A stretch of 44,805 nt of DNA from a virus. Made by a program: the position numbers and the translations under genes. Of this stretch, positions 17,780-41,478 are shown piece by piece. Each line of letters opens with the position of its first letter. Within the stretch, counting starts at the first letter, position 1. Under the pieces are notes generated by a model, which had not been told where the DNA came from, made no database searches, and saw only the letters and a program-made list of their open reading frames with translations. The DNA lies in the IMG/VR virus record IMGVR_UViG_3300045988_165656. One strand, 5' to 3'.

Positions 17780-18145
17780 TCACCAACTTTCTGTATTGAA
17801 CATGCCTTTTGCTTTTGCCAAAAGCTCAGAGGCTCGAATGCGATTTCGCATCGGTTCTTCTTCATCATTCATGATTTTTGTCCAAAATCCTTGTATCTCA
17901 GCAATCGATGCGATGTTATGTTTTACACACTCAGCAACCTTTTGGGTGTAATTTTGTGCAACCTCAGCGTTAAGTTGTGTAATATATTCCTGTACATCGC
18001 GCCTTTTGAGTAATTTTGCTGCACTTGTTCTCGCTGAAGCAGGTTTATATCCAGCTTTGATTGCTGCTTGTGCTTTATCGCCTTTGCATTCTCCAATGAG
18101 GTATTGACAAAATAAAATTTGCTTTTGATTCAGCATTTGTCTCAC
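17780..18145 (-). CDS. Terminase_2-type small-subunit-like DNA-binding protein
   Basis: LNQKQILFCQYLIGECKGDKAQAAIKAGYKPASARTSAAKLLKRRDVQEYI matches the N-terminal HTH signature of Terminase_2-family TerS proteins. Confidence 0.7.
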   Translation of the reverse strand: MRQMLNQKQILFCQYLIGECKGDKAQAAIKAGYKPASARTSAAKLLKRRDVQEYITQLNAEVAQNYTQKVAECVKHNIASIAEIQGFWTKIMNDEEEPMRNRIRASELLAKAKGMFNTESW

Positions 18146-19002
18146 CCGGTTTCATTCGTGTATTTCTTATCGATCCAACCTGTAACCGCTCCATTTTGTT
18201 TTGCACTGATTCTGAATCTGCCATTGATGATTTTTCCATCTGTCACATAGTAGAATCCTGTCAGAACATTCGCTCTTTTCTTGGCATCACTTGATGCGAA
18301 CAGTTCCATGTGGTCCAATTGAATCTTGTAACCTGCTGCAATTTTACTTGTGCTTGCCACGCCGTGTGTAGTAACACTAGCTTTCTTCGTCCAAAATCCA
18401 TTCCTACCAGCTTTCTTGATCGCTGTCGGATAGTCAAAATAGCACTCGTTGATGTCTACATTTCCAGCAATACCATAAACCTTGCCTGTGCTGGATTTCT
18501 GCCAGATACCATACTGACCCGAATATGTGCACTTTGTGTTATACTGAGCAACCCAAACTGCATAACGTTTCCGAATGTCATCAGTGAAGTATGTACTCAA
18601 AAAAGACTTACTCGTGTACAATCCGACCCAATAACCTGCATTCTCAAGAACATCAAAGAACGCTTTCGCAATAGAAGAGCATTTTGCTTTACCAAGTGCA
18701 AACTGTTTCTTTTCCTCGATGTCATAATAGATCGGAAACTCAAACGTCTTACCGGCAATTACCTTCAGGCAAACAGCAGCTTCTTGTTTGGCTTCAGCTT
18801 CACTCATAGCGTAACTGTACCAATATGCTCCACAAGGAATACTATTGGATTTGCATCCTGCATAGTTATTTTCGAATTGCTGGTCTTTCTGTGAAATCTC
18901 TTTGCCGTAACCTGCGCGGATAATGGCAAACTTTACGCCATCTGCTTTCACATGAGACCAATTCACATTTCCTTGATGTTTGGAGACGTCAATTCCTTTC
19001 AT
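18142..19002 (-). CDS. Endolysin: GH25 muramidase with a C-terminal SH3-like wall-binding domain
   Basis: MKGIDVSKHQGNVNWSHVKADGVKFAIIRAGYG is the GH25 N-terminal signature. The C-terminal ~90 aa ends NGRFRISAKQNGAVTGWI. Confidence 0.9.
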   Translation of the reverse strand: MKGIDVSKHQGNVNWSHVKADGVKFAIIRAGYGKEISQKDQQFENNYAGCKSNSIPCGAYWYSYAMSEAEAKQEAAVCLKVIAGKTFEFPIYYDIEEKKQFALGKAKCSSIAKAFFDVLENAGYWVGLYTSKSFLSTYFTDDIRKRYAVWVAQYNTKCTYSGQYGIWQKSSTGKVYGIAGNVDINECYFDYPTAIKKAGRNGFWTKKASVTTHGVASTSKIAAGYKIQLDHMELFASSDAKKRANVLTGFYYVTDGKIINGRFRISAKQNGAVTGWIDKKYTNETG

Positions 19003-19003
19003 G

Positions 19004-19231
19004 TCAATTCTCCTTTTCTAAGTCTTCGATTCGATGATTTGCAACCTTAATTTGCTCCTCATCACGTGTCAATCGTTCTTCGATCTTGAATGTTCTTTCG
19101 ATCAGATTGTTATGCTTGTTCACACGCTTTTCCAATTGTTCAATTCGATATGCTGTCAGCTTATTTCCACCGTAAACAGTCAAAATCGTACCGATCAATG
19201 TAATGACACTTACCGCTATTTCTGTACTCAT
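19004..19231 (-). CDS. XhlA-like membrane protein (lysis accessory)
   Basis: 75 aa with one N-terminal TM helix followed by a coiled coil. Sits between the holin and the endolysin. Confidence 0.6.
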   Translation of the reverse strand: MSTEIAVSVITLIGTILTVYGGNKLTAYRIEQLEKRVNKHNNLIERTFKIEERLTRDEEQIKVANHRIEDLEKEN

Positions 19232-19497
19232 TCTTCTTTTCCTAACTGCTTGTAGATTTGGTTTCCGTAAACTGCTGTACCTGCACAGAGAATCCCCTGC
19301 ACGATTCCAGAGAATATTCCGTCAAGCGATAAACCATAAAGGCTGATCGTATAAAGCGCACTCAGGACGACACCAGATATGCCCAGGAGCATCGGAATAT
19401 ATTTGTTCTTAACCATATCGGCATCACTAAAAATCTTACCAATTACGACTAATGCCGGAATCAGAATCAACATTTCAGGCCGAACATAATCAGTCAT
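19228..19497 (-). CDS. Holin (phi LC3-like family)
   Basis: ATG at 19497 follows SD gaggtg. About 89 aa with multiple TM helices and a charged C-terminus (NQIYKQLGKEE). Confidence 0.7.
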   Translation of the reverse strand: MTDYVRPEMLILIPALVVIGKIFSDADMVKNKYIPMLLGISGVVLSALYTISLYGLSLDGIFSGIVQGILCAGTAVYGNQIYKQLGKEE

Positions 19498-19521
19498 CGT
19501 TATCACCTCATCTCTAATAAT

Positions 19522-19550
19522 ATTATACCGAAATAGTGTCATATTTTACA
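19522..19550 (-). promoter_or_regulatory. Candidate promoter of the lysis-packaging-morphogenesis operon
   Basis: On the minus strand: TGTAAA, 17 nt, TATAAT, about 25 nt upstream of the holin SD. Confidence 0.4.
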
Positions 19551-20712: not shown

Positions 20713-20743
20713 TTAGTAAATTGATTGTGAACAAAATATAAAA

Positions 20744-20771
20744 AGCCCTCAGAACCAAAATTCTGAGGGCT
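20744..20771 (-). terminator. Rho-independent terminator after the ArpU-like gene
   Basis: Stem agccctcagaa / ttctgagggct, followed by a T-run on the minus strand. Confidence 0.65.
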
Positions 20772-20791
20772 TCATAATGCACAAATGATAT

Positions 20792-21581: not shown

Positions 21582-21983
21582 TCAACCTGAATTCAACCTG
21601 ACTTTCGCAATGCCTGCATTTTTCATCATTCTTCGACAAATCGGGCAAGGTTCCGCCGCAATCACTTTTCCGTTTTCTTCGCCGTAAAGGTAGAGCGTAG
21701 AGCCAATCATATCCTTGCGAGCAGCCGAGATCATCGCATTCATTTCAGCATGCACGCTTTCGCAGTCACCATAATCACCATCATTGTGCTCATGACCAAG
21801 TCTTTTGCAGGTACCTCCGTCACAACAATTCGCTTCACCTCGAGGTGAGCCATTATATCCTGTTGCGATGATCTCATCATTCTTGACTATCACCGCTCCA
21901 TACTGTCTGCGCGTGCATGTTGATCGCTTACTGACGGCTGCTGCAATGCCAAGATAATATTCTTCGATTGTAGGTCTGTTCAT
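21582..21983 (-). CDS. dCMP (deoxycytidylate) deaminase
   Basis: Zinc motifs VHAEMNA and PCPICRRMM. 133 aa, ComEB/T4-cd-like. Confidence 0.9.
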   Translation of the reverse strand: MNRPTIEEYYLGIAAAVSKRSTCTRRQYGAVIVKNDEIIATGYNGSPRGEANCCDGGTCKRLGHEHNDGDYGDCESVHAEMNAMISAARKDMIGSTLYLYGEENGKVIAAEPCPICRRMMKNAGIAKVRLNSG

Positions 21984-23635
21984 TAGATTTTCTCCAATAC
22001 AGTGTTGCCGACAACGAGTACATCTGTACCACTTGTAATCCAGCTCTTTACTGCTACTTCTGTCGATTCAATGATCGGGTTGTTGTGCAAGTTGAAGCTC
22101 GTATTGATGAGCGCCTTCTTGCCAGTAAGAAGCTGATAGATTGAGAGTACTTTCCAGATGAACGGATCTTCATTCTGAGAGACGATTTGCGGTCTTGCTG
22201 TATGATCTACGTGGCAAGCAGCAGGATAGCTCTCGATGAATTCTGGCGTACAATCGAACGTCATCGTCATATGCTTTGCACTGTCTCTGCCACCATCAAG
22301 CTCCAAGAACAGGTCATCCGCTACTTCTTCGCGGCATACAGGAGCGAAAGGCATAAACTCTGTACGACCAAGCTTGTCATTGAGCCAAGTGTTGGTTTCC
22401 TTCGTGTCGCAATTATACAGAATGCTACGATGGCAAAGAGCACGAGGACCGAATTCCATCTTACCCTTGACGAGGCAAACGATCTTATTTTCACTGAGCA
22501 TCTCTGCGATTGTCCGTGCCAATTCATTATCGTTAGCAATTCTACGGCAAGAATACTTGTCAGACTCACCTACGATCAAACGTTCATTTGCAATTGTGCC
22601 ACATTGATTCGGGCTGATTTTTGCTTCAGGAAGATTGTCAGACAGAATAGCGTATGCTGCACCAATTGCATTGCCTTCGTCTCCCATTGCAGGGCACACA
22701 TAGACGTTTTTGAAGATACCCAATTCTTTGATTCTCTGATTGATTTTGACATTTGCAAATAATCCACCAGACAAATAGCAATTATAGTCATATTCGTCAA
22801 CGTTTTCGTATATCCACTTGCAAACACACTGCTCTGCATATTCCTGAACTGTAGCAGCGATGTCCTCACGTGTTGCTCCTGCTGCTTTCAGATTTTCAAC
22901 GAGCGAATAAGTTGCTTTCTTCAGTTTGAGGAAATCACCGAAATCATAGATGTGAGATTCTTCCACCATCTGTTCTTCTTCCTCTGTCAGAGGTACATTG
23001 CGAGATTCTACTTCCAAAGAATAGAATTCTCTCAAATATTTTGGCTGACCAAATGCTGCAAGGCCTGTGATTTTTCCTTCATGCTTGAGCTCTGTGAAGC
23101 CTAATGCACCGGTCACAAATTGATACACCAAACCAACTGAAGCTCTGAGCGGCAAAGATACGTTGACTTCATCATTACCGTATCGGTAAATGATTCCGCT
23201 GTAACCATCGCCAAAACCATCAGACGTGATGAGATAGTCACCATTTTTTGGATTGTCATAAAATGCGACTGTAGCAAAAGCATGAGCCCAGTGATGAGGC
23301 ACGTGAATGATGTCTTCAAAATCAATTGCCGTATGCTCGCGAAAGTAGTTGCGAATCACATCATGCCAATTGTCACTGTGAAGATTGTATTTTTTACCGT
23401 ACTTCTCCAAATAGTCTGTGCTCATGTTCTCATAGTGAGATACTGCGAGAGCTTCGAAATTGTATACACCAGAGAGCTCACAGCACTTCACAGCCGCATC
23501 GAAAGGAAGCTCTTTGGTATTCTTTTCACCATTCAGACGTTCCTGAGAGATCGCTGCAAGCACTCCTCGTTTGCTAGATACAACGCACGCTGAACTGTTA
23601 TGACTGAATGACATTCCAAGATAAAATTTTTCCAC
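21983..23635 (-). CDS. NodU/CmcH-family carbamoyltransferase
   Basis: 550 aa. N-terminus LGMSFSHNSSACVV...ISQERLNGEKNTKELP and HHWAHAFATVAF are family hallmarks. C-terminal carbamoyltransferase domain is present. Confidence 0.85.
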   Translation of the reverse strand: MEKFYLGMSFSHNSSACVVSSKRGVLAAISQERLNGEKNTKELPFDAAVKCCELSGVYNFEALAVSHYENMSTDYLEKYGKKYNLHSDNWHDVIRNYFREHTAIDFEDIIHVPHHWAHAFATVAFYDNPKNGDYLITSDGFGDGYSGIIYRYGNDEVNVSLPLRASVGLVYQFVTGALGFTELKHEGKITGLAAFGQPKYLREFYSLEVESRNVPLTEEEEQMVEESHIYDFGDFLKLKKATYSLVENLKAAGATREDIAATVQEYAEQCVCKWIYENVDEYDYNCYLSGGLFANVKINQRIKELGIFKNVYVCPAMGDEGNAIGAAYAILSDNLPEAKISPNQCGTIANERLIVGESDKYSCRRIANDNELARTIAEMLSENKIVCLVKGKMEFGPRALCHRSILYNCDTKETNTWLNDKLGRTEFMPFAPVCREEVADDLFLELDGGRDSAKHMTMTFDCTPEFIESYPAACHVDHTARPQIVSQNEDPFIWKVLSIYQLLTGKKALINTSFNLHNNPIIESTEVAVKSWITSGTDVLVVGNTVLEKI

Positions 23636-23647
23636 GATAATTCCTCC

Positions 23648-24118
23648 TCAATATTCGATCCAATGTGATTTGAACCAGTGTGTCCAGTTTCGATCAGTCA
23701 ATTTGGTTTTTACTACTCCGAAACCTACACCGATAGCGTATGACGATTCAATAACCTCTCCGTTTCCAACGTAAATACCAACGTGATTAGGCATGTATAC
23801 CAAAACACCTGCTATATTTGGAATGGTGTCAATTGTTCCATTTTCCGTTGCGAGTTTGAACAGGTCATCGGTTGCAATATCCTCTGACACTTCTGCACAT
23901 TTCTTCACTAGGCCGATACAATCGAAACAATATATGTACCGACCGATGAAGCTTTTAAGATATTCAACAACTGCGTGATTGTAACGTTTTGGGGCAATTT
24001 GGATTCCTTTGTTTATGACTTCTTCGCTGATGATTTCACCAGAAGCTCCCCATACAAACAAAGTGTTGATTTTCTCTAACCGTTTAGCGGTTAGAGCAAC
24101 TTCTCCGCTCGTTCTCAT
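23648..24118 (-). CDS. NlpC/P60-fold (papain-like Cys-His) protein with no signal peptide or wall-binding domain
   Basis: FDCIGLVKKC (catalytic Cys context) and PNHVGIYVGNGEVIESS (His context). 156 aa. Overlaps the ThyX-like stop. Confidence 0.6.
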   Translation of the reverse strand: MRTSGEVALTAKRLEKINTLFVWGASGEIISEEVINKGIQIAPKRYNHAVVEYLKSFIGRYIYCFDCIGLVKKCAEVSEDIATDDLFKLATENGTIDTIPNIAGVLVYMPNHVGIYVGNGEVIESSYAIGVGFGVVKTKLTDRNWTHWFKSHWIEY

Positions 24119-24834
24119 ATAAATTCCTCCATGTACGGTAATTTTTCAACCCATTCGCAGAACGTCCGCCATTCGTCAAGCTTATGGGTCTTTCTCGAAT
24201 GGTACATGTTCAACAGCACTTCATAATTCAATTGTACCGTTGCACGCTGGTTATAACTTGACGGTAAAAGCTGAATCATCTGCCACCAGTATTTTTTATC
24301 TTTTGTTTGTAAATACATATTCTTGTTACTGTTCAATACCGCCACGGTTATTTGTAATAACGAATAAGGGTGTAAAAGTATATCGTATTCACCAACCGAT
24401 AATTTAGCGTGAGTATTACCAGTAGTTTCTAAATGTTCATGCGAAAAATCATCTATAGTAAATTCTTTTTTGTGAATCGTGTGCATCGTTGAACAAGAAT
24501 TGCGAACAGTGCCAACCTTATATGTATCGAATTCCTTCCACCAATATAACGGTGCTGTGATGTCAACTGTCACATTTATCATACGAAGGAATTTTCTATG
24601 GTCTGTACCAGCTTTGACGAGTTTCTTCATCCGAGCAAGGTCATTTTCACCGACAATAAGATGAGCTGTATTTTCATTACAAACGCAACGGTGAACACAA
24701 TTTTTAGGACATTCTTCATCATACCAAGTGTCGCAAAAATCACTATCCGACTTGTCCCAACTGTTCATTGGATTTCTCATTCCACGAATGGCTGCTTCCC
24801 ATCCGTATACTTCATCATTTTCAATTTGAATCAC
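24115..24834 (-). CDS. ThyX-like (flavin-dependent thymidylate synthase family) protein with a divergent substrate motif
   Basis: DHRKFLRMINVTVDITAPLYWWKEFDTYKVGTVRNSCSTMH and LPSSYNQRATVQLNYEVLLNMYHSRK parallel ThyX blocks. The canonical RHRxxSxxxxSxRY motif is altered. Confidence 0.55.
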   Translation of the reverse strand: MIQIENDEVYGWEAAIRGMRNPMNSWDKSDSDFCDTWYDEECPKNCVHRCVCNENTAHLIVGENDLARMKKLVKAGTDHRKFLRMINVTVDITAPLYWWKEFDTYKVGTVRNSCSTMHTIHKKEFTIDDFSHEHLETTGNTHAKLSVGEYDILLHPYSLLQITVAVLNSNKNMYLQTKDKKYWWQMIQLLPSSYNQRATVQLNYEVLLNMYHSRKTHKLDEWRTFCEWVEKLPYMEEFI

Positions 24835-25138
24835 TCTTGACCTCCAAATCTAACGCATCAAGGTCGATGCCATACTCTTTTCGCAAATAGCTGATCGCAT
24901 CATCAGCTGTCACATCTTTCCCGAAAATATCAGGCCAATGAAGAATTTCATTTGCACTTTCTACAATTCGCTCAAGACGTTTCTTGCGCCATCCTAGCGT
25001 TCTTTCTAATGCGATCAAACATATGGCAATACCTTGCTTTGCACCATCTCCCAGCGCAGTCTGAAAGATCTCATCTCTCATTTGTTCATATGCTGCCACT
25101 GAGATTTTTACCGTGTTTCTATCTTTGAGGGTTTTCAC
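24821..25138 (-). CDS. Hypothetical protein
   Basis: 105-aa ORF with a GTG start at 25138, overlapping the ThyX-like start. Confidence 0.4.
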   Translation of the reverse strand: MKTLKDRNTVKISVAAYEQMRDEIFQTALGDGAKQGIAICLIALERTLGWRKKRLERIVESANEILHWPDIFGKDVTADDAISYLRKEYGIDLDALDLEVKSDSN

Positions 25139-25216
25139 TTACAAAATAACACCTCCGAGAATGAAACCGAATACAAAACACACAAATCCGATAAAGGCGT
25201 ACGCCATAACTCTCAT
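25139..25216 (-). CDS. Possible 25-aa hydrophobic peptide
   Basis: MRVMAYAFIGFVCFVFGFILGGVIL exactly fills the gap between two genes. It is short, so support is weak. Confidence 0.3.
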   Translation of the reverse strand: MRVMAYAFIGFVCFVFGFILGGVIL

Positions 25217-25217
25217 G

Positions 25218-25523
25218 TCATTCACCTCTCAATCGTTTTTGAACATATTGGATTGTTTCACACAGTGAATCCAATTCGTCAACAATCTTATCGAACTTTT
25301 TCTGTACTTCGTTTAGATCATCTTCAAAATCGAAACCTAACAATTGATTTGGTGTAACATGGAATTCATTGCAAATTTTTAGAAGCGTCGTTGTGCTAGG
25401 AACGGATTTTTCGCTTTCATAGGTGTAAATTATGTTCTTACTTACTCCCAAGCGTTCTGCGAATTGTTCTCGTGTCAATCCTTCACGTTTACGCAAAATT
25501 TTCAGGTTTTTTGCAAACTTCAT
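25218..25523 (-). CDS. XRE-family HTH transcriptional regulator embedded in the nucleotide operon
   Basis: LKILRKREGLTREQFAERLGVSKNIIYTYESEKSVPSTTTLLKICNEF is a classic Cro/C1-type HTH. Confidence 0.8.
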   Translation of the reverse strand: MKFAKNLKILRKREGLTREQFAERLGVSKNIIYTYESEKSVPSTTTLLKICNEFHVTPNQLLGFDFEDDLNEVQKKFDKIVDELDSLCETIQYVQKRLRGE

Positions 25524-25526
25524 GCT

Positions 25527-25946
25527 TTATACTCCTGTACTCCCAAAGCCGTTGCTTCCACGTTCCTCAATATCCTCTGTGACAAAATCAGCAATAACAA
25601 CTGGTGTAATTACCAATTGGCCAATTCTGTCACCGTTATGTACAATGAAGGATTCTCTACCTACGTTTGTAACGATCGCGTGAATTTCTCCACGGTAACC
25701 AGAATCAATTGGAGGAAGCTCACAAACAATTCCCTTTGTGCTCAAGCCGCTTCTTGGAAATACGCATGCAGCATAACCATCAGGGAGAATCAATCCCAAA
25801 CCGAGAGGAATCTTACGAGTGTGATTCGGAGGAATTACAATTGTTCCTTCACCTGTGATATGAGCATGTACATCTGCACCTGCATCGTTTGCGTGAGCTC
25901 TAAGCGGCAGTTTCTCATAGCCGTAGTCCAACACCTTAATCTTCAT
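25527..25946 (-). CDS. dut: Trimeric dUTPase-family nucleotidohydrolase
   Basis: AGADVHA, PRSGLS, IDSGYRGEI and C-terminal RGSNGFGSTG motifs. Confidence 0.9.
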   Translation of the reverse strand: MKIKVLDYGYEKLPLRAHANDAGADVHAHITGEGTIVIPPNHTRKIPLGLGLILPDGYAACVFPRSGLSTKGIVCELPPIDSGYRGEIHAIVTNVGRESFIVHNGDRIGQLVITPVVIADFVTEDIEERGSNGFGSTGV

Positions 25947-26739
25947 ACTTTTCCTCCTTCAAAATGCCATAGTCTTCACATGCCAGAACCAAATCAATTT
26001 TTGGAGTTTCACTTTTTTCAACAATTTGCTCCAAAATGAACTTGTAGCACATCAACTTTTCAAAATCGACCGAAATTTGAAGAGTTGGAATTGTAGCAGC
26101 CGCTCTTACGATGTCATCATAATTGCGTTCATACACGTGCAGACTTACGACTGTATGCGTATATGTGCCACATTCAACGTCCAGTCTTTTGGCGATATAT
26201 TTCTGCAGCTCAGTGAAGAAAATCGTGTCATACGGTAAACCATACCAAACGTCATTGCTGCGCATGATTCCATAACCGTGTAGCTTGCCGTCACGAATGA
26301 GGAACTGCAATGCAATCGTGCAAATCTCATCCTTCGTCTCAATCACACGTTTATTTGGAACATTGAAATTGATAACTGCCCGTCTGCTTGTAGGGTCACT
26401 GCACAAAAGCTGAATGATCTTCTCGACCTGATTGAAACCGTGTCTACCGAAGACAATATCACCATACGCTGAATATGAGGTTACTCCGTCATCCGAGATG
26501 CGACCCCAAAGACCTGCGAATTTGTTTATAAAGCCTACATCATTGCGCCCAAGAGCGTACCAGAGCAGCTCTCCGCAAATGTACGGCTTTGAGATATTTC
26601 TCACGTTGATAACGTTATTATCCAAATTAGTCAGCGTGAATGAATATCCGTTTAGCTCTTTCGTTCCTCTCACTTCGGGTGCATCTACCAAATCGCTACA
26701 AATTTTTTTGTAAATGCTATCCATGTTGTTTGCAATCAT
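25936..26739 (-). CDS. ThyA-family pyrimidine C5 transferase, predicted dCMP-specific (hydroxymethylase or methylase)
   Basis: Aligns without gaps to E. coli ThyA from the catalytic Cys (EICTIALQF) through RSND to GLPYD. Asp replaces the specificity residue Asn177. Confidence 0.75.
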   Translation of the reverse strand: MIANNMDSIYKKICSDLVDAPEVRGTKELNGYSFTLTNLDNNVINVRNISKPYICGELLWYALGRNDVGFINKFAGLWGRISDDGVTSYSAYGDIVFGRHGFNQVEKIIQLLCSDPTSRRAVINFNVPNKRVIETKDEICTIALQFLIRDGKLHGYGIMRSNDVWYGLPYDTIFFTELQKYIAKRLDVECGTYTHTVVSLHVYERNYDDIVRAAATIPTLQISVDFEKLMCYKFILEQIVEKSETPKIDLVLACEDYGILKEEKYED

Positions 26740-26953
26740 GTTTCTTCTCTCCTAACATTTCGTAAATTTTTCTGAATGAGGTCATTTGTGCAATTTCGTT
26801 CATTGTGAATTTCACGTCGAATTCGTCCTCGATAGCGACGATTAAACCGATATGAGCAAGACTGTCCCATCCATCGGTATTTTCTGGTGTAGAATTTTCA
26901 TCTACCTCTACTTTCAGCACTTCGCGAAAGATTTCTTTCAATCGTTCGAGCAT
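26717..26953 (-). CDS. Acyl carrier protein
   Basis: 78 aa, acidic, with the phosphopantetheine-attachment context GWDSLAHIGLIVAIEDEF. Ends in TAG and overlaps the next start. Confidence 0.8.
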   Translation of the reverse strand: MLERLKEIFREVLKVEVDENSTPENTDGWDSLAHIGLIVAIEDEFDVKFTMNEIAQMTSFRKIYEMLGEKKHDCKQHG

Positions 26954-28545
26954 TCAATCACCTCATTTTTTTCAGTATAGTCATCAACGTTTAACATCCA
27001 ACGAGCAACCGAATATTTGGTGAAACCTAACTTTTGGTATATGTCAAGATTTGAGTTGTTTCTGTCGTTTTCGAAAAAAAGTCCTACAACCTGTTTGATA
27101 CCTCTTGATTTGCATTCATCGATGAAAGAATCAAATAATGCAAATTCCAAATCTCGTTTGAGAACTCTACAGCTCATCACCCAAATATCTATGACAGCTG
27201 AATCGTTTTCCATCTTTGCAGAAATAACACTGACTAAACCGTTATCACCAAATTTGTCTTTTAGCTTTGCTGTCAGCGTGAATCTGTTCTCGTTGCGAAG
27301 AACACTCTCGCTGATTTTGTATCCTGTCAAATTGAATTGGTGCGTTTTGTTGATTAGCTGAATAGATCGCTCAATCGTGTCATCGTTTAACATTTCGATT
27401 TTTGCTTGCATGTGCAAACTTTCCAAATATTCGCGATAGTCGGAAAATTTACCTTCGAACGATTGTCTTTCGGCGTTCGCTTTGTACATATCTGCCCTAT
27501 TCAGATCGTCGTTTGTAACGATCGTCGGTTCGAAATACGCTTGCTTATCCAATTCTCTTATTCTCTCGGTGATATCTGCCATGAGTGGCGTTTCAACTCC
27601 GAGCTGTTCATGAACCAGATAACGTTCCGCTTCATTGTCGTCGATGAACACAAAATCAGTAGGTGCAATGCCGACTTCTTCTGATAATCGTTCCAAGTTA
27701 CTAGCTTTGTCGTTCCAATTTGCAAGTATGATAGGAAAATCAGATTCGCCGAGAATTCCTCCAGATGTTCTCAACGCACTCAGAGCAGCATCTTCGTTAT
27801 TCTTCGATATAACATATAACGGCACATTCAAATCCTTGATGTACTGTTGGAACTCTCTGAATGCTCTACCTATAGCATTATCTGCGGCAACATTTACCGT
27901 GCCTTCTCCTGCTAATCCATCCCACAATGTGTTATCCAAATCAATTGCGATGGCTTTTTTATTTTCACCGCAAATAGACTTTATGATATGCAAAATATTC
28001 GAACACAATATTGGAATTGCAGCAACGTCTAACGCATAACCATACATGTACCAATGAGACAGATTGTGCCATTTTTCAAGACCGTAATTCGCAGAAAGCC
28101 AATTGATGTCATTGATATGGAACCAATCGTGACTTGCCGCAAAGTCATAAAACTTCTCATTGAGTTTTGCTAAAAATCTAGATTTGCCTCTAACATCGTA
28201 GCAATCTCGATTTCCTAACAATCGATAAAACGGCATCTCGAAATTATTTTGGATAACATGGCAATCATAATCGTCATGCAACTTCAACCACATTTCTTCA
28301 TACCGATTATATTCGTTGTCCAGTTTTCTCAGGATCTCATCTGGTGAATCTTTCACGTTCGGCTCATAAATTATATTCCTATTTGTAGTGTGAATGTAGA
28401 TGAAATCTGGAGTGAATCCGTGAAAATCACCATACATCGCTGTTTCCCAAAACTTGCCGAAATCGTCCTCGTAAACCTCGTGATGTTCTCCTAAAATTTT
28501 GGCAATATGAGCAGTAGTGGAACCTCCCAAAATAGCTATCTTCAT
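26938..28545 (-). CDS. FkbH-like HAD-IIIC phosphatase/acyltransferase (glyceryl-ACP loading type)
   Basis: IAIDLDNTLWDG, VISKNNEDAA, ANWNDKASNL, FVFIDDNEAER and C-terminal VMSCRVLKRDLE match the FkbH-domain blocks. ATG at 28545 overlaps the upstream stop (ATGA). Confidence 0.85.
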   Translation of the reverse strand: MKIAILGGSTTAHIAKILGEHHEVYEDDFGKFWETAMYGDFHGFTPDFIYIHTTNRNIIYEPNVKDSPDEILRKLDNEYNRYEEMWLKLHDDYDCHVIQNNFEMPFYRLLGNRDCYDVRGKSRFLAKLNEKFYDFAASHDWFHINDINWLSANYGLEKWHNLSHWYMYGYALDVAAIPILCSNILHIIKSICGENKKAIAIDLDNTLWDGLAGEGTVNVAADNAIGRAFREFQQYIKDLNVPLYVISKNNEDAALSALRTSGGILGESDFPIILANWNDKASNLERLSEEVGIAPTDFVFIDDNEAERYLVHEQLGVETPLMADITERIRELDKQAYFEPTIVTNDDLNRADMYKANAERQSFEGKFSDYREYLESLHMQAKIEMLNDDTIERSIQLINKTHQFNLTGYKISESVLRNENRFTLTAKLKDKFGDNGLVSVISAKMENDSAVIDIWVMSCRVLKRDLEFALFDSFIDECKSRGIKQVVGLFFENDRNNSNLDIYQKLGFTKYSVARWMLNVDDYTEKNEVIECSND

Positions 28546-29018
28546 CAAATCATCCTTTCGATCTCGTTAACTACCTCATCAACAGTCTTACCTGTGGTGT
28601 CAACAAGAGGAAATAAACACGAATCTGAAAGTGTGACATAGTCACGATTGATATTTTTCACTAATTCGAAATCTTCGACGTATTCGTCACCTCTAGCTTC
28701 GAGTCGTTTCTTCAATTCAGATTCGCTCGCCGTCAAGATAAACACTTTACAACCGTAGCTGTCCAACAAAGTAAATAACATGTCCTCAACAGTATCATCG
28801 AATTTTGGTTTGCGACCGAAATATCTTGGATAGATGAGCTCGCTGATGAAACAACGATCATGTACCATGTTATCTGGCACCATTACTTCCATATACTTTC
28901 TTATTGTACCGTCACCGTCATGAGTAAGTCTGATGATGTCACAATGCAAGCGATTGGCCAATTTTTCAACAACTGACGTTTTACCTGTACAATCGCATCC
29001 TTCGATCAAAATTCTCAT
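28545..29018 (-). CDS. Thymidylate-kinase-like dNMP kinase
   Basis: P-loop ILIEGCDCTGKTS (compare Tmk EGxDGxGKT). ATG at 29018 follows SD gaggagg. Confidence 0.65.
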   Translation of the reverse strand: MRILIEGCDCTGKTSVVEKLANRLHCDIIRLTHDGDGTIRKYMEVMVPDNMVHDRCFISELIYPRYFGRKPKFDDTVEDMLFTLLDSYGCKVFILTASESELKKRLEARGDEYVEDFELVKNINRDYVTLSDSCLFPLVDTTGKTVDEVVNEIERMI

Positions 29019-29189
29019 TTGTTCCTCCTCACGGTTCATTTCTTGTGAATCTCACAACTGCAACAAATTTTTTCCGGCTGAGATCATATGTCATATGCCA
29101 GTCAATCACCGCTACCTTATTGGATAACTGTGCTAACTGTGCTGCAAGATTGACTCTGTTCATAGCCTCAAAGCTGATACATTCGACCA

Positions 29190-31076
29190 TTATGCACCTT
29201 CTTTCTTGACAAATATACGATACTTCTTACCTTTGATCGTCTTGTCCTTGATGTCAAAGTCAAACTGCTTTTTGACCTGTTTAGAAAACTCAATGTGTGA
29301 CATCGGATTGAATGCATTTGCCAAACAAAATTCACCGTACAATTTGTAGATTTCTTTTGTTGGTTCATTCTCGATGTCATCAGCACCGACTTCTTTGAAG
29401 AACAATTGGATAGGATTGTTCGTCTCTTCATATTCTTCGATTGACTTCTGAACCTTATCTGACTTCGTGAACGCATTATTGCTCAAAATACGTTTCAAAC
29501 CTTTGATTCCTAAGATTATGAGGTACTCCAGAACTTCAGGTTCGATTAGCTTATATTTGATATATGGGTCAAAATCAGGGTCATCCTTAGAGAATCTAGC
29601 ATCAAATGGAATGATAACCAATCGACTCAATACCGCACCCGATTTGTCTTTCATTCTAGGAATATTATTGGCTGAGAATAATAGCTTACAATACGGTGCG
29701 AAGAAGAATTCGTTTTGGCCTTTCTTTTCACCTTTTATCGGATCTCCAGAAACAATTTTCTTGAATATCGATGGATTTGCAATGAAGTCATCGCCAATAT
29801 CATCACCGATATTTGCCAATTTTCCGAATAACGATGCTGATGAAAATCTGTCACCCAATTCATTCAGGTCCAATGCTGCCGTATTATCATCACCGAGTAA
29901 TTCTTTAAGCATTGATAAATATGTAGACTTACCATTCTTCTTGTCACCTGTTAGGATAAATGATTTTCTCAACTCATTTCGTCGATAGAAACAATAACCA
30001 ACAGCTTCTTCCAACAACGCTCTGATATTAGGATCGTTGCATGATAATTTATCAAGCGTGCCGTCCAACAATTCACTTTTAGCATTTGAATTATAGTTGA
30101 AATTGATTTTGTTAGTGATAATTATGTCAGGTGAAAAATCAGTCAATGTGTCTTCTTCGATGTCATAAATTCCATTTTTGAATGCTATGTACCTAGCATC
30201 ACTAGGACGAGTATTTTTCCGTGTTAGCACGTCAAGATAACTCAACACCTCAGTTCGCTTTGAGCGATTCAAATTTGGAATGTGTTCGATCATCGCTGCT
30301 TCGATGTCCAATTGGCCAGGAACATAAATTCCATCATGATAAATATGCAACTGCCCGTTGATTCTCACTATGTGATGAGTATTCTTCAAATATATTGCAA
30401 ACTTGTCAAATTGAAATTTTCCGTTTTTGAAGAACATCGGTTTTTTGAATGCTTCATCTCTGAGAATCGTGTTCAGTTCTGATTCATCTAATTTGTCTTT
30501 TAACAAATACTCGTTGATGATGCCGATGCACTCTCGAGCTTCGTCAACTGAAAAATCATTCGATTGCAATGTCAAAATATAATTGAACAGCGTTTGATTT
30601 CTACCATCGCCTCTCTCCATTTCCAAGAAATCGATCGAGCTTTTGACCGGTATCAACCATTTTGGAACGGTGTCATATTCGTCGCAATCGTAAATTATTT
30701 CACGTTCTCGATCATCATATTTCAAAATCGAATATGAGTTTTTTGTCCCTATTTTGATATCTGCGGTTAGGCCGCAAGCCAATTTAGTACGAATCTTGTT
30801 CGTCTCAAGTTTGTCATTGATAAACAAAAAATGCTTTCCTCTGGTGGTCTGATAAACTCTGCATTGCAACTTCATTTCCTGAACAATCTTGAACAGAATT
30901 TCTGACTGCTCAAAATCATCGATGTCGATCAGAGCTGTTTCATCAGATAAAATACCAGCATACTCAGGTAAGTTTTTCACTTGCTCGTACGTTTGTAATT
31001 CTTCTGACGTTTTACCTTTGAATTTCAACAGGCATTTCTTGTCTTTCGTAGGAACATATCCTTTGAAAAAATTCAC
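29190..31076 (-). CDS. Bifunctional primase-polymerase / SF3 (D5/P4-type) helicase
   Basis: N-terminal prim-pol-like region (ALIDIDD...TTRGKHFLF). Walker A GDKKNGKST within a P4/D5-like C-terminal domain. Confidence 0.85.
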   Translation of the reverse strand: MNFFKGYVPTKDKKCLLKFKGKTSEELQTYEQVKNLPEYAGILSDETALIDIDDFEQSEILFKIVQEMKLQCRVYQTTRGKHFLFINDKLETNKIRTKLACGLTADIKIGTKNSYSILKYDDREREIIYDCDEYDTVPKWLIPVKSSIDFLEMERGDGRNQTLFNYILTLQSNDFSVDEARECIGIINEYLLKDKLDESELNTILRDEAFKKPMFFKNGKFQFDKFAIYLKNTHHIVRINGQLHIYHDGIYVPGQLDIEAAMIEHIPNLNRSKRTEVLSYLDVLTRKNTRPSDARYIAFKNGIYDIEEDTLTDFSPDIIITNKINFNYNSNAKSELLDGTLDKLSCNDPNIRALLEEAVGYCFYRRNELRKSFILTGDKKNGKSTYLSMLKELLGDDNTAALDLNELGDRFSSASLFGKLANIGDDIGDDFIANPSIFKKIVSGDPIKGEKKGQNEFFFAPYCKLLFSANNIPRMKDKSGAVLSRLVIIPFDARFSKDDPDFDPYIKYKLIEPEVLEYLIILGIKGLKRILSNNAFTKSDKVQKSIEEYEETNNPIQLFFKEVGADDIENEPTKEIYKLYGEFCLANAFNPMSHIEFSKQVKKQFDFDIKDKTIKGKKYRIFVKKEGA

Positions 31077-31276
31077 TTACCGTCACTCCGTTGCCATTTA
31101 TTTGAGCAGTACACACATTTTGTTGATGTGCCACGTCTCAAGTTATCACCTCTTACTGCTTTCGTTCTTCCACAAATATCACACATGCAATTCCAATATG
31201 CTCGTTTCTTGTTGTCGAGAAAACTAAATTCAAAAACGTGCCAATGGCCAAAAGTTTGGCCGCTTATATCTATCAT
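31073..31276 (-). CDS. Small zinc-ribbon protein
   Basis: 67 aa with CMCDICG...CVYC. Overlaps both neighbours. Confidence 0.45.
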   Translation of the reverse strand: MIDISGQTFGHWHVFEFSFLDNKKRAYWNCMCDICGRTKAVRGDNLRRGTSTKCVYCSNKWQRSDGK

Positions 31277-33216
31277 GTTTGCATCACTCCAAACTGAGTT
31301 AGTCTATCTTTTGCCATTTTGATGTACCATTCTCTATCGAGTCTCCAACCAACAGTTGCTTTTTTCACATCATCGTTCACGATGAAGCAATGTTCTGGAG
31401 TATTTGCAAATTTTTCAATAATTGCACCGTCAGTCTTTTGCTTTCCAATAAAACCGTCTGTCGTTTTTACTGAAGCGAATACTCTGAATGTTCTATCGTT
31501 CAATTTGACATTTCCATGACTATCGGCGGAGTGTGTTTCATAATATTTACACCCATTACACTCGCAGCGGTTAATGTCGATTTCTCCAAATTTATCCGGA
31601 TTATGAACGTTTGGATTCGAACACGAATATAAATGGAAACGACTGTCACCCAAATCTTTCATGTATTTACATGTTTCATCTTTGTAATCACTAGGATATT
31701 TTGACAGTGCATGCCAGCTGTTCTTAAACTTACCTGAAAGCTTGACGATCTTTTGGAACATAATGAGATCGTTGCATTCAGCGATCGTCTTTTCGACTGG
31801 AATACCGATTGTCATATAGTCAACCATTGCTTTATTGACAATTGGCAAATCATAATCCAATGTATTTTGCTTTTTGACGTATGAACCTTTTGATTTGTAG
31901 TGTCCATCACCATCGACAACAACATAATTGTTAACGTCTTTTTGGAAAATACGTCGATATTCATCAAATTCCATATTCAAACCAGTACGCTGTTCCCATT
32001 CATAAACGATGTCGTCAATGATTTCAAACCATTTGTTTTCATCTTTGTCGTCAGGCATTCTAATCAAAATACCATCGGTGTTCGACTGAATGATTTCTGC
32101 ATATGGTTCCAATTTTTCCATCAAATCCAACAGCAGTAACTGTCCAAAAATACAAATGTTATTTGCCATCAACGGATCGTATAACTGGTTGTTTTTATCT
32201 TTGAGACAACCGTATGTACCATTCAACAACCATTTCAACGGTGCTTGCAATGGATTCTTTTCCGCTTTGTATTTTATTCGTTGATGGTAAATATCAATGA
32301 ACTTTTGAGGGTCCTTAATGTTTCTAGAATGCAAATTGTATTGGATCATAAGCGAAGGATATAGGCTTCTAACGTCCATATTGATGAAATAACCTTCAGC
32401 GACATATTTCTTGCGAGCCGAGTGAATACCACCCCAACCGAATAGTGTTTCTACACCTGCGACTAAAACTGTCAACGATTTTGAATAATCTCGATTGTTC
32501 ACATCTTTATACCAATCTACAACATTGGTATATTTGGATATTCTCAATGTATCTGGGAACGAAATGTCAAATTCGTCTCCTCTTGATTCACGAGGTCTGT
32601 GAGCATCAAGAATCATTGCTGACAACTGTGCTTTCGTTCTGCTGATATTTGACATCGGCAAACCGAACATTTTTATCATGCCGATTTGGGCATCGAAATC
32701 GTCTTTCCGTGAGAAGAAAACTTCGATAGTTTGCTCAACATCATGTCGGCAATATTTGACGGTTTCTTCGATCTCACTTTTAGTCAACTTTCTATCAATG
32801 TCGAACGGCACAGATGTTTCTTTGATATCATTTCCCATAAAACCTTCAAGTGACTTAAGGCCTCTGTCACTACGATACATCACGTCGTAATTGTACATTT
32901 GGAATTTTCTGAATAGGCCACTGAATTGCCATCCATATTTTCCTTTAGCGATAATGAAATCATTGACTTCCTTAGGATTGAATCCACAAAGAATTGCTTT
33001 CAGAATATATTGGTCATAGTGGTTGTTATTATAACCAACCCAAATTTGATTCTTGTGAGCATCGTAATATTCTTGGAGCTTCTCTTTGTCGTTGATAATC
33101 ACCACTTCTGATTTTTCGTAGATATTGATAATTGCAACGAGCCAATCTTCTTTGAACACCTCAAAATCGTAGAAATTGAGAATTGAACTCACCTCCTGAC
33201 TAACCCACCTTCCCAC
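31273..33216 (-). CDS. Family-B-like DNA polymerase with 3'-5' exonuclease domain (start codon uncertain)
   Basis: Exo motifs FYDFEVF, NNHYDQYIL and YCRHDVEQT. Polymerase motifs DVRSLYPSLM and QSNTDGILI. There is no ATG in the first ~100 codons. Confidence 0.8.
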   Translation of the reverse strand: MGRWVSQEVSSILNFYDFEVFKEDWLVAIINIYEKSEVVIINDKEKLQEYYDAHKNQIWVGYNNNHYDQYILKAILCGFNPKEVNDFIIAKGKYGWQFSGLFRKFQMYNYDVMYRSDRGLKSLEGFMGNDIKETSVPFDIDRKLTKSEIEETVKYCRHDVEQTIEVFFSRKDDFDAQIGMIKMFGLPMSNISRTKAQLSAMILDAHRPRESRGDEFDISFPDTLRISKYTNVVDWYKDVNNRDYSKSLTVLVAGVETLFGWGGIHSARKKYVAEGYFINMDVRSLYPSLMIQYNLHSRNIKDPQKFIDIYHQRIKYKAEKNPLQAPLKWLLNGTYGCLKDKNNQLYDPLMANNICIFGQLLLLDLMEKLEPYAEIIQSNTDGILIRMPDDKDENKWFEIIDDIVYEWEQRTGLNMEFDEYRRIFQKDVNNYVVVDGDGHYKSKGSYVKKQNTLDYDLPIVNKAMVDYMTIGIPVEKTIAECNDLIMFQKIVKLSGKFKNSWHALSKYPSDYKDETCKYMKDLGDSRFHLYSCSNPNVHNPDKFGEIDINRCECNGCKYYETHSADSHGNVKLNDRTFRVFASVKTTDGFIGKQKTDGAIIEKFANTPEHCFIVNDDVKKATVGWRLDREWYIKMAKDRLTQFGVMQT

Positions 33217-40237: not shown

Positions 40238-40457
40238 AAATTCAACAAAGTCAGCATAATTCGAATAATGTTGAATTGCGAAAAACCGTTGGTATGCCGC
40301 ACTTTTTTGACTGCCAATTCCACAATTCAACTTAAAACGCTCATTTTATATATACTTATACGTCGATAATTTTTAACGTCGAAATTTTTCGACGTAGATA
40401 TATAGAATAATATATATTATTATATTATCTTGACTTGACACTGAAAGAAGGAGAATG
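40238..40457. repeat. Right copy of the diverged inverted duplication (partner at 21181-21415); integrase upstream region
   Basis: See 21181-21415. Includes the integrase SD region gaaagaaggag. Confidence 0.7.
40376..40395. promoter_or_regulatory. Perfect 9-2-9 palindrome ACGTCGAAA-TT-TTTCGACGT
   Basis: Exact reverse-complement arms. An extra ACGTCGA half-site lies at about 40359. A degenerate copy sits at 21259-21278 in the left repeat. Confidence 0.6.
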
Positions 40458-40461
40458 CACT

Positions 40462-41478
40462 ATGAAAAATCCAAATGGCTACGGTTCAGTATTCAAATTA
40501 GGAGGAAATCGGCGACGACCGTGGTGTGCCAGAGTAACAGTAGGATGGACAGACGACGGCAAACAAAAATATCAGAATATTGGATATTATGAAGAACGTA
40601 GCGAAGCACTAATTGCACTTGCAAAATATAACGACGATCCATATGACTTAGATGCAAACAAAATCACGTTCGCTGAGATATACGAAAAATGGTCAGAAGA
40701 GAAATTTCCAAAAATCTCTCAGAGTAACATTAGAGGGTATCGAACGTCTTTCAATAAATGCTCAAGACTTCACAATGTGAAATTTAGACAAATCAAGAAA
40801 ATGCACATGCAAAGAGTTATCACTGAGAATGAGCATTTATCGTTTCAAATTAGAAGTAAAATGAAAACGCTGTTCTCACAGCTCTATCGTTTTGCTATTG
40901 AGAATGACATAGTTGAGAAAGATTATTCTCAATTCGTCGATGCTGGAGAAATGACAACAAAAATAATACGTATGCCTTTCTCAGATAACGAAATAGAGCT
41001 ACTCTGGGACAATTTGGATATGGAATATATAGATACAATATTGATTATGATATACACAGGGATGCGTGTCGGAGAGCTTCTGGAGATGCGATGCGATGAC
41101 ATTGATATAAACTCTCGTATTATGATCGGTGGAATAAAAACAGCAGCAAGTAAAAATCGTGCTATTCCAATTCATAAACGAATAGTACCGCTTGTTGAAA
41201 AACGATTGAAACAAGAATATTTAGTGCAAAGTCCAACCGGTAAGAAATTTTCCTACAACAATTACATACAGCGGCAATTTACTCCACTCATGACGAAATT
41301 AGGTATGAGTCACCTGCCGCATGACTGCCGTCATACCACCGCTACTAAATTGGATAACGTAGGTGCAAACACCACTATTATCAAACGAATATTAGGCCAT
41401 GCTTCGCATGATATTACAGAACGAGTATACACTCACAAAACACACGAACAATTGGTAGAAACTATAGACAAAATATAA
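40462..41478 (+). CDS. int: Tyrosine recombinase (phage integrase)
   Basis: ATG at 40462 follows SD gaaggag. Catalytic context TGMRVGEL, HDCRHT, LGHAS and RVYTH. N-terminal arm-binding-like domain. Confidence 0.9.
   Translation: MKNPNGYGSVFKLGGNRRRPWCARVTVGWTDDGKQKYQNIGYYEERSEALIALAKYNDDPYDLDANKITFAEIYEKWSEEKFPKISQSNIRGYRTSFNKCSRLHNVKFRQIKKMHMQRVITENEHLSFQIRSKMKTLFSQLYRFAIENDIVEKDYSQFVDAGEMTTKIIRMPFSDNEIELLWDNLDMEYIDTILIMIYTGMRVGELLEMRCDDIDINSRIMIGGIKTAASKNRAIPIHKRIVPLVEKRLKQEYLVQSPTGKKFSYNNYIQRQFTPLMTKLGMSHLPHDCRHTTATKLDNVGANTTIIKRILGHASHDITERVYTHKTHEQLVETIDKI

Follow-up and report, generated by a model that had tools for sequence, protein, structure and literature searches.

A conserved phage gene core predicted to produce 5-carbamoyloxymethylcytosine and an accessory FkbH, ACP and NlpC/P60 cassette with a possible envelope-directed role

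Background

What do an FkbH-like enzyme, an acyl carrier protein (ACP) and an NlpC/P60 protein do among the nucleotide-metabolism genes of a phage? The question is raised by a virus record from IMG/VR, IMGVR_UViG_3300045988_165656 (the window, i.e. the whole stretch of 44,805 nucleotides analyzed here), in which a tightly packed minus-strand array of eleven co-directional open reading frames (ORFs; 21582-29039 in the ORF list) brings these three genes together with a nucleotide kinase, a ThyA homologue, a dUTPase, a dCMP deaminase and an O-carbamoyltransferase of the NodU/CmcH/TobZ type (Table 1). An earlier note on this DNA proposed that the array follows the logic of the T4 gene set for hydroxymethylpyrimidines, and that the 5-CH2OH group is then decorated by O-carbamoylation and/or by a glyceryl or acyl group delivered by the ACP. 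The explanation that we favor divides the array in two: a conserved core for 5-carbamoyloxymethyl-dC, and an accessory cassette directed at the cell envelope; taken together as one explanation, we give it a probability of about 0.5.

The ThyA homologue carries the signature of dCMP hydroxymethylases

The closest solved relative of the ThyA homologue is the CMP hydroxymethylase MilA (PDB search, E 6e-30). According to the rules given for phage ThyA homologues in a 2026 paper, C146 (E. coli numbering) is catalytic, N177D selects cytosine, L143D/E accompanies a hydroxymethyl product, and D169N marks 5-hydroxy-dCMP synthases (PMC13326640). We read the corresponding residues from a HMMER alignment to 5b6d (MilA) and from alignment A6: Cys140 occupies the position of C146, Asp171 ("GLPYD") that of N177, Asp137 that of L143, and Asp163 ("RSND") that of D169. 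Position 143 was assigned via MilA, whose "DVAC" is aligned to the "DEIC" of the window, because MAFFT puts a two-residue gap before the Cys relative to the E. coli sequence. All these diagnostic residues are invariant across six relatives. The combination of Cys146, Asp177 and an acidic residue at 143 is that of dCMP 5-hydroxymethylases of the T4 gp42/MilA type, and from this residue signature the ThyA homologue is predicted to be a dCMP 5-hydroxymethylase. The cytosine-type residue and the T4-like logic recognized in the earlier note are thus borne out (Cys, N177D and L143D, with D169 kept). Two other identities were considered for this protein: the residue signature argues against a dUMP methylase, and a 5-hydroxy-dCMP synthase of the RB69 gp48 type was rejected on account of Asp, not Asn, at position 169.

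The carbamoyltransferase and its association with ThyA

The carbamoyltransferase has the two-domain architecture (Carbam_trans_N and Carbam_trans_C, Kae1-like and YrdC-like) of the known phage module acting on 5-hydroxymethylcytosine (5hmC), and it is 26% identical end to end (E 3e-35) to the 5hmC carbamoyltransferase characterized by MetaGPA. Its PDB matches include also GdmN, NovN and TobZ (the last in seventh place), therefore the substrate is not fixed by sequence alone. What argues for a 5hmC-type substrate is the association with ThyA. Among 24 IMG/VR loci, retrieved by a profile built from 30 carbamoyltransferase relatives, ThyA adjoins the carbamoyltransferase in 14, usually with the kinase or the deaminase, down to 38-46% carbamoyltransferase identity; ThyA(Asp), carbamoyltransferase, kinase and deaminase are adjacent not only in close relatives but also in distant phages (L016-L020, L022-L024 and L028).

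The same association is known from MetaGPA, in which contigs of cytosine-modified phages were the only ones to carry a carbamoyltransferase and ThyA(Asp177) together, in the vicinity of genes for dCMP deaminase and of the MazG type (Yang et al., eLife 2021, PMC8670742). One such enzyme was shown to convert 5hmC to 5-carbamoyloxymethylcytosine (5cmC) in single-stranded DNA, RNA and dNTPs, at the expense of carbamoyl phosphate and ATP (PMC8670742). The families listed as enriched on modified contigs in the supplementary table of MetaGPA (Thymidylat_synt, dCMP_cyt_deam_1, Carbam_trans_N/C, Thy1, dUTPase, DNA_pol_B, PDDEXK_1, SNF2_N and RNA_ligase) are present in the replication module of the phage, except for RNA_ligase, which is found in the relatives L008, L049 and L050 instead of the window; Thy1 and DNA_pol_B match in the window only below cutoffs. 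The resemblance to the module of Yang et al. therefore covers the two-domain carbamoyltransferase adjoining ThyA(Asp177) and dCMP deaminase, as well as a dUTPase, a Thy1-like gene, PolB, PDDEXK and SNF2 in the same genomes. Apart from the low identity to the characterized enzyme, the differences are that the window has no MazG/PRA-PH gene and that FkbH, ACP and NlpC/P60 are inserted in the one sub-clade to which it belongs.

The likeness to the replacement of dC in T4 lies in the synthesis of hm-dCMP by a ThyA homologue before replication, a dedicated kinase, a dCMP deaminase, and the transfer of a group onto 5-CH2OH after synthesis of the DNA. The window differs in having a canonical trimeric dUTPase (presumably not homologous to T4 gp56) in place of a gp56-type dCTPase; it has no ThyA-type td, for which the sole candidate is a diverged ThyX-like protein; and the predicted transferred group is carbamoyl, whereas in T4 it is glucose, added by glucosyltransferases. 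O-carbamoylation of a hydroxymethylpyrimidine is thus well supported by the constant linkage of carbamoyltransferase and ThyA, but it is not new: carbamoylation of 5hmC was published in 2021 (PMC8670742). The assignment of 5hmC and 5cmC to this phage is predicted from residues and gene association.

A core conserved among gut phages

More than 100 clusters are close to the carbamoyltransferase, at 46-95% identity, and many of these lie on gut contigs of 40-52 kb; at least 12 related gut phage contigs of ~44 kb share the core. In every full-length member the order is primase, kinase, ThyA, dUTPase, small ORFs, phrog_6721 protein, carbamoyltransferase, deaminase. The kinase is found in all family members, at an identity of only 46-65%.

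The phrog_6721 protein is the gene that had been called ThyX-like. Pfam Thy1 matches it with E 0.039 (14 bits vs a cutoff of 24.8) and matches 4 of 40 relatives; neither sequence nor profile search finds a PDB match; hhalign with Thermotoga maritima ThyX (TM0449) gives a colinear but insignificant alignment (E 0.059, ~1% probability); and the single-sequence AlphaFold model is unusable (pLDDT 36). The RHRxxS motif of ThyX is lacking: "FRHRIAS" is aligned to "DTYKVGT", with RHR replaced by TYK, in a stretch that is invariant in the family. The phrog_6721 family comprises 4030 representative clusters; phages of Clostridium, Enterocloster, Clostridioides and Fusobacterium encode members, in every case annotated as hypothetical. 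In all full-length family contigs examined there is a homologue or else an equally long ORF in that slot. The gene thus belongs to the core; it lies upstream of the carbamoyltransferase, and adjoins it where no NlpC/P60 or small ORF intervenes. The protein may have a ThyX-derived fold, but the label of thymidylate synthase is not justified; of the five nucleotide-metabolism genes of the earlier note, the kinase, ThyA, dUTPase and dCMP deaminase hold and the ThyX-like call is weak.

FkbH, ACP and NlpC/P60 are accessory genes

The three further genes show a different distribution. FkbH, ACP and NlpC/P60 occur together in the window, L002/L036, L008, L049 and L050, which form one close sub-clade with 75-81% identity in these three proteins, and all three are absent from seven relatives with the full core (L003, L014, L015, L048, L211, L212 and L213). 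One of the latter, L003, is 92% identical to the window in the primase and 87% in both ThyA and carbamoyltransferase. The three genes are thus dispensable accessories, which the core does not require. Nor are they a strictly co-varying unit, which is ruled out by L047: here the slot ahead of the carbamoyltransferase is likewise occupied by an NlpC/P60 homologue (159 aa, 35% identity), but FkbH and ACP are missing. A contig of 2.5 kb, L011, carries ThyA, dUTPase, a 59-aa ORF, NlpC/P60 (60% identity) and carbamoyltransferase.

In the comparison of the window with L008 the dN/dS values are 0.11 for FkbH, 0.08 for ACP, 0.11 for NlpC/P60, 0.10 for ThyA and 0.15 for carbamoyltransferase, which are rough values, with dS near saturation. 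FkbH, ACP and NlpC/P60 are under purifying selection and are therefore functional for the phage. The same region takes also unrelated inserts in some members (RNA ligase, DUF3310 and HTH genes): the modification-gene region is an insertion hot spot. The RNA ligase (PF09414) lies between carbamoyltransferase and dCMP deaminase (L008:16535-17173, L049:9132-9770, L050:11632-12270), and in L049 and L050 a DUF3310 gene stands ahead of the ThyX-like gene.

Origin of the FkbH/ACP pair

The FkbH protein has the domain composition of glyceryl-ACP loaders (HAD-IIIC plus the C-terminal transferase part), and its DxDNT, SKN and DD motifs, together with the Cys of the SCR motif, are invariant in alignment A2 (D203, D205, T207, S248, K249, D303, D304, C460); we take this Cys to be catalytic by analogy with OzmB/FkbH. 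The ACP has the serine of the DSL motif and is 36-39% identical to ACPs that come after bacterial FkbH homologues, so a dedicated ACP adjoins FkbH in the phage and in bacteria alike. The likeness to the FkbH/OzmB glyceryl-ACP loaders of polyketide and tetronate pathways extends to an FkbH above the TIGR01686 cutoff, the HAD phosphatase motifs, the SCR Cys and the ACP immediately downstream. The window, however, has no polyketide synthase, ketosynthase (KS) or FkbG-K partners, and its FkbH is closest to ~590-aa proteins of Clostridia, which have an FkbH_N domain and are linked to MBOAT/DHHW genes, not to the Streptomyces enzymes.

Beyond four phage relatives, FkbH has thousands of such ~590-aa homologues, 43-46% identical over the full length, in Ruminococcus, Oscillospiraceae, Lachnospiraceae and other Clostridia. 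Among the best 80 FkbH loci in GTDB, an ACP is encoded within the 8-kb flanks in 44-65 (44 by ORF clustering, 65 by tblastn), typically directly downstream; MBOAT is found in 49 out of 77, and a DHHW/AlgX-like SGNH protein in 16, with MBOAT-DHHW-FkbH-ACP and FkbH-ACP-(MaoC-SDR)-MBOAT as repeated orders. The best 80 metagenome FkbH loci include 42 with MBOAT and 15 with DHHW; none of them has a ThyA or NlpC/P60 homologue. A single locus among these best 160 bacterial ones, L083 from a metagenome-assembled genome of Candidatus Endomicrobiellum, has a carbamoyltransferase homologue within 8 kb.

One member of the DHHW family is Bacillus cereus PatB1, which O-acetylates wall polysaccharides in partnership with the MBOAT protein PatA1 (PMC9487903). 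Together with the MBOAT/DHHW neighborhoods, this indicates that the bacterial system resembles the O-acylation of the envelope by Dlt/Pat, with a carrier loaded by FkbH. Common to the phage pair and the Dlt/PatA-PatB systems are a small carrier loaded in the cytoplasm and bacterial homologues in operons of the MBOAT-DHHW-FkbH-ACP type. The full system combines MBOAT and an extracytoplasmic SGNH/DHHW transferase with a carrier, whereas the phage has only loader and carrier, and the loader is FkbH-like and not an adenylating ligase of the DltA type. By its sequence relationships the FkbH/ACP pair is host-derived, and its ancestry, together with the fold of the NlpC/P60 protein (see below), points to the cell envelope.

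In Ruminococcus (L004-L007) the gene after FkbH likewise encodes an ACP, 36% identical to that of the phage; in L004:8001-10634 a conserved 197-aa protein, which matches no family, and an inorganic pyrophosphatase come after FkbH-ACP, and the mraZ/dcw cluster lies directly downstream. The flanks of these loci (8 kb in L004) contain no called MBOAT gene. The 197-aa gene was considered as a counterpart of NlpC/P60 and rejected, as there is no similarity. Another rejected candidate is the FkbH region of MT835480 (L009, MT835480.1 59476-75110), which bears the label "Bacteriophage sp." but is bacterial-looking: its gene content (FkbH, ACP, GH2, two DHHW genes, a Mur-ligase-like gene and a DUF308 membrane protein) resembles that of bacterial DNA for envelope acylation rather than that of a phage.

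The only FkbH/ACP pair adjoining ThyA and carbamoyltransferase in IMG/VR and INPHARED is that of the window's own clade (L036 being L002), and no independent phage lineage with such a combination was found in IMG/VR (single protein and profile) or INPHARED (tblastn), nor was any lineage in the GTDB and metagenome scans among the matches listed. The neighborhood search suggested in the earlier note was thus positive for the clade itself and negative for independent lineages. The other phage pairs (L001 and L039-L042) are located in SDR-KASIII-MaoC-DegT-hexapeptide-GT2 clusters, which lack ThyA and carbamoyltransferase. There (L001:7453-15196 and L039-L042) a short FkbH-like gene of 324-340 aa and an ACP stand in a cluster including a hexapeptide-acyltransferase and a methyltransferase/GT2, next to genes for a PAPS-reductase-like protein and an N6/N4 DNA methylase; the cluster looks like a pathway for an acylated amino sugar. 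We found no paper in the literature that ties FkbH to phage DNA modification.

The NlpC/P60 protein

Asp66-Cys67, His112 and Glu124 are conserved in the NlpC/P60 protein. Its alignment-based AlphaFold model (pLDDT 95.9) has as top PDB matches in Foldseek RipB, Acd24020, CwlO and LytE, i.e. DL-endopeptidases and hydrolases of phage and diffocin baseplates, while HRASLS3 is found at rank 50 with E 0.5. Compared with viral models (BFVD), it matches peptidoglycan hydrolases, except that the top match is automatically named "lecithin retinol acyltransferase"; this match is a homologue within the same phage NlpC/P60 family. LRAT-type enzymes are circularly permuted and have the His before the Cys. 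In the window protein Cys67 precedes His112 in the canonical order, and the match to HRASLS3 is just E 0.5, hence an LRAT or H-RAS-like suppressor acyltransferase was rejected: the protein, whose fold was noted earlier to include LRAT-type acyltransferases, groups instead with peptidoglycan endopeptidases.

Relatives outside the clade are ~245 aa long, 39% identical over the whole query, and several of them possess PG_binding_1, SH3_3, CW_7 or PG_binding_3 domains, as endolysins do; the window protein (156 aa) stops where the PG_binding, SH3 or CW_7 domains of these relatives start. One ~245-aa relative belongs to a temperate phage and is encoded close to its integrase end. The features of a peptidoglycan endopeptidase that are found in the window protein are the papain-like fold, the order Cys then His and the polar third residue; an export signal, a wall-binding module and membership in the lysis cassette are lacking. 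In other words, it shares the fold and the canonical Cys-His-Glu order with NlpC/P60 DL-endopeptidases and phage lysins such as RipB, CwlO, LytE and Acd24020, and differs from the lysins in being encoded in the early nucleotide-metabolism array and in having neither a wall-binding domain nor a signal peptide. Most likely it is a wall-peptide endopeptidase domain.

Proposed pathway and its alternatives

The best-supported reading of the core is a pathway from dC via 5hmdC to 5-carbamoyloxymethyl-dC. Judging from its diagnostic residues, the ThyA homologue would convert dCMP to 5-hydroxymethyl-dCMP, which the phage dNMP kinase and the NDP kinase of the host would bring to the triphosphate for incorporation by the family-B polymerase of the phage. 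By analogy with the MetaGPA enzyme and from the gene association, the carbamoyltransferase would then use carbamoyl phosphate and ATP to turn 5hmC into 5-carbamoyloxymethylcytosine, either on single-stranded DNA or on the dNTP. The dCMP deaminase, the dUTPase and possibly the ThyX-like protein would keep dTTP supplied and dUTP low. FkbH with ACP, and NlpC/P60, appear to be later additions in one sub-clade only. Given the family chemistry and the intact motifs, the most likely role of FkbH is to charge the phage ACP with a glyceryl-type unit derived from 1,3-bisphosphoglycerate; going by the ancestry of the pair, the acyl-ACP may then be handed to a Pat/Dlt-like MBOAT/DHHW machine of the host, which would O-acylate a cell-wall polymer during infection. 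Of the roles considered for the accessory genes, this envelope-directed one is the most likely.

Several observations weigh against the combined explanation. Concerning the core, the carbamoyltransferase is just 26% identical to the proven enzyme, and GdmN from natural-product biosynthesis scores higher; the phage has an integrase, while wholesale replacement of dC is unusual in temperate phages. As to the accessory genes, tblastn of the window with bacterial MBOAT, DHHW and c5 representatives found none, and the envelope-directed role therefore needs a compatible host machine. The NlpC/P60 protein has no signal peptide (no hydrophobic N-terminus) or wall-binding domain and is encoded far from the holin/GH25 cassette. 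Finally, the positions of the genes suit a DNA-directed role as well: FkbH-ACP is placed exactly between kinase and ThyA, with stop and start codons overlapping on both sides, and three lineages (the window clade, L011 and L047) have NlpC/P60 as the gene immediately preceding the carbamoyltransferase.

Among the alternatives, the one that survives best, though still improbable, is that FkbH, ACP and NlpC/P60 act on a target that is neither DNA nor envelope (a small molecule, a protein of the virion or the host, or a glycan made by the host), or that NlpC/P60 is independent of FkbH/ACP, as it is in L047. Loaders of the FkbH type do feed diverse pathways, and bacterial neighborhoods contain also MaoC/SDR or transketolase genes; the Ruminococcus loci with the 197-aa gene and no MBOAT called in their flanks can be accommodated in the same way. 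Against this, the window encodes no KS, C-domain or glycosyltransferase partner enzymes, and MBOAT is the dominant bacterial partner.

Marginally less probable is the hypermodification of DNA dependent on a carrier protein, in which FkbH makes glyceryl-S-ACP and NlpC/P60 transfers the acyl group to the 5-CH2OH of hydroxymethylcytosine, beside or together with carbamoylation. An enzyme with a papain fold could carry out such chemistry, from thioester via acyl-Cys to O-acyl. Both insertions are inside the modification module and translationally coupled, every genome with FkbH/ACP has also NlpC/P60, and the latter is immediately upstream of the carbamoyltransferase in L011 and L047 as well; the protein looks cytoplasmic and no longer has the wall-binding domain found in its relatives, its top viral match carries the acyltransferase name, and the genes are under purifying selection. 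However, the FkbH-positive genomes are one close clade, so that their co-occurrence amounts effectively to a single event; L047 has NlpC/P60 without the pair, and seven relatives run the core with none of the three genes. Independent lineages with FkbH/ACP and ThyA or carbamoyltransferase are lacking in the searches described above, the other phage pairs belong to sugar-acyl clusters, and PP-binding is not enriched on cytosine-modified contigs in MetaGPA (2 vs 268; PMC8670742). The NlpC/P60 protein has the fold and residue order of peptidoglycan hydrolases, not of LRAT, the region accepts also the unrelated RNA ligase, DUF3310 and HTH inserts, and the carbamoyltransferase would compete for the same hydroxyl. 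The wiring of the three genes into a DNA pathway, proposed in the earlier note, is hence not supported, given their absence from the seven full-core relatives, their MBOAT/DHHW ancestry and the lack of PP-binding enrichment. What argues for an ACP-delivered decoration of DNA is gene position, within an insertion hot spot, and we regard it as unlikely; a more specific version for the sub-clade, in which a thioester of a glyceryl or small hydroxyacyl unit on FkbH/ACP is transferred by NlpC/P60 onto 5hmC or its carbamoyl derivative, is slightly more doubtful still.

Least probable is that there is no hypermodification of DNA at all, with the ThyA homologue making 5-methyl-dCMP or dTMP and the carbamoyltransferase acting on a glycan or small molecule as assumed for its cyanophage and natural-product homologues: the latter enzyme is closer in sequence to GdmN and NovN than to the MetaGPA enzyme, many carbamoyltransferases of cyanophages and pelagiphages have no ThyA neighbor, and the integrase suggests a temperate lifestyle, but Asp at both 177 and 143 speaks against a dUMP methylase and a methyl product, the adjacency to ThyA is kept down to 38-46% carbamoyltransferase identity, and the same association is found only on experimentally modified contigs (MetaGPA).

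Organization of the locus

The family searches place all the genes named in the earlier note in one array on the minus strand, which confirms that the operon is real; the family matches of the dUTPase, ACP, FkbH and NlpC/P60 are above cutoffs, and the family-B polymerase and the primase-helicase are indeed upstream. Its gene list omitted the XRE-type HTH gene and the 105-aa ORF, and its end coordinate 29018 is an internal Met of the kinase ORF (28545-29039). Start and stop codons overlap by 1-23 nt at seven of the ten junctions, and the other three are gaps of 3, 12 and 79 nt. The terminator scan gave nothing convincing within the array, the first strong one being downstream at 20742-20773, and the promoter scan within the operon gave nothing above background. 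Megablast with the operon against 50,697 phage records returned no match.

Table 1. Features of the window, and phrog_6721 homologues in related contigs
Feature	Position	Strand	Details
dCMP deaminase	21582-21983	-	133 aa; dCMP_cyt_deam_1 E 1e-19; ComEB-like
NodU/CmcH/TobZ-type O-carbamoyltransferase	21983-23635	-	550 aa; Carbam_trans_N E 6e-31, Carbam_trans_C E 9e-50
Stand-alone NlpC/P60 domain (accessory)	23648-24118	-	156 aa; Pfam 24.3 bits vs cutoff 23
phrog_6721 protein, remotely ThyX-like	24115-24834	-	239 aa; phrog_6721 E 1e-76
105-aa protein	24821-25138	-	no significant family match
XRE-family HTH protein	25218-25523	-	101 aa; HTH_19, HTH_3 E 1e-13
Trimeric dUTPase	25527-25946	-	139 aa; Pfam dUTPase E 1e-22; NCBIfam dut equivalog NF001862 110.8 bits vs cutoff 103
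ThyA homologue, predicted dCMP 5-hydroxymethylase	25936-26739	-	267 aa; ThyA family E 3e-22
Acyl carrier protein (accessory, FkbH partner)	26717-26953	-	78 aa; PP-binding E 6e-8, 33 bits vs cutoff 21
FkbH-like HAD-IIIC enzyme (accessory)	26938-28548	-	536 aa; TIGR01686 198 bits vs cutoff 147
P-loop dNMP/dTMP-kinase-like protein	28545-29039	-	164 aa; phrog_761 "thymidylate kinase" E 6e-13; Pfam AAA_18, Thymidylate_kin
D5_N/DUF5906 primase-helicase	29190-31076	-	Pfam; directly upstream of array
67-aa ORF	between primase-helicase and polymerase	-	co-directional
Family-B DNA polymerase	31273-33216	-	motifs DxxSLYPS, KxxxNGxYG, NTDG; Pfam match weak
Holin/GH25 lysis cassette	18142-19542		
Tyrosine integrase	40435-41478	+	Phage_integrase E 3e-22; at strand switch
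phrog_6721 homologues in relatives	L002:8689-9399; L003:9180-9872; L047:8568-9326		

Homologues of the XRE-type HTH protein in relatives are 45-47% identical, and the gene is missing from several of them; the 105-aa ORF has weak homologues in L014 and L048. The polymerase of the window is 647 aa long and contains a Cys-rich segment of ~70 residues (residues ~500-570), at which the tblastn match splits in L002, L003 and L008, where ORFs of 573-583 aa are accompanied by a separate 78-aa ORF. The integrase, located at a strand switch, indicates that the phage is probably temperate, which is unusual where a module of the dC-replacement type is combined with a family-B polymerase of the phage itself. 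Overall it looks like a temperate siphophage of gut Clostridia, the host being deduced from two sources, the hosts of annotated phages with a ThyX-like homologue and the taxonomy of those bacteria whose FkbH is nearest.

Implications

With this core, the 5-carbamoyloxymethylcytosine pathway reaches into a large family of phages of ~44 kb, probably temperate ones of gut Clostridia, which is relevant to restriction evasion, to sequencing bias in gut viromes and to enzyme tools. The phrog_6721 proteins, a large conserved family that has lost the ThyX motif, pose a question in their own right. The accessory cassette is an unexplained gene set under selection, for which the phages provide near-isogenic natural controls (the L002/L008 type vs the L003 type). 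If the cassette acts on DNA, it would represent a new chemical class of base modification and the first acylation of a DNA base that depends on a carrier protein; if it feeds a host MBOAT, it would be a new route by which a phage rewrites the Gram-positive cell wall during infection.

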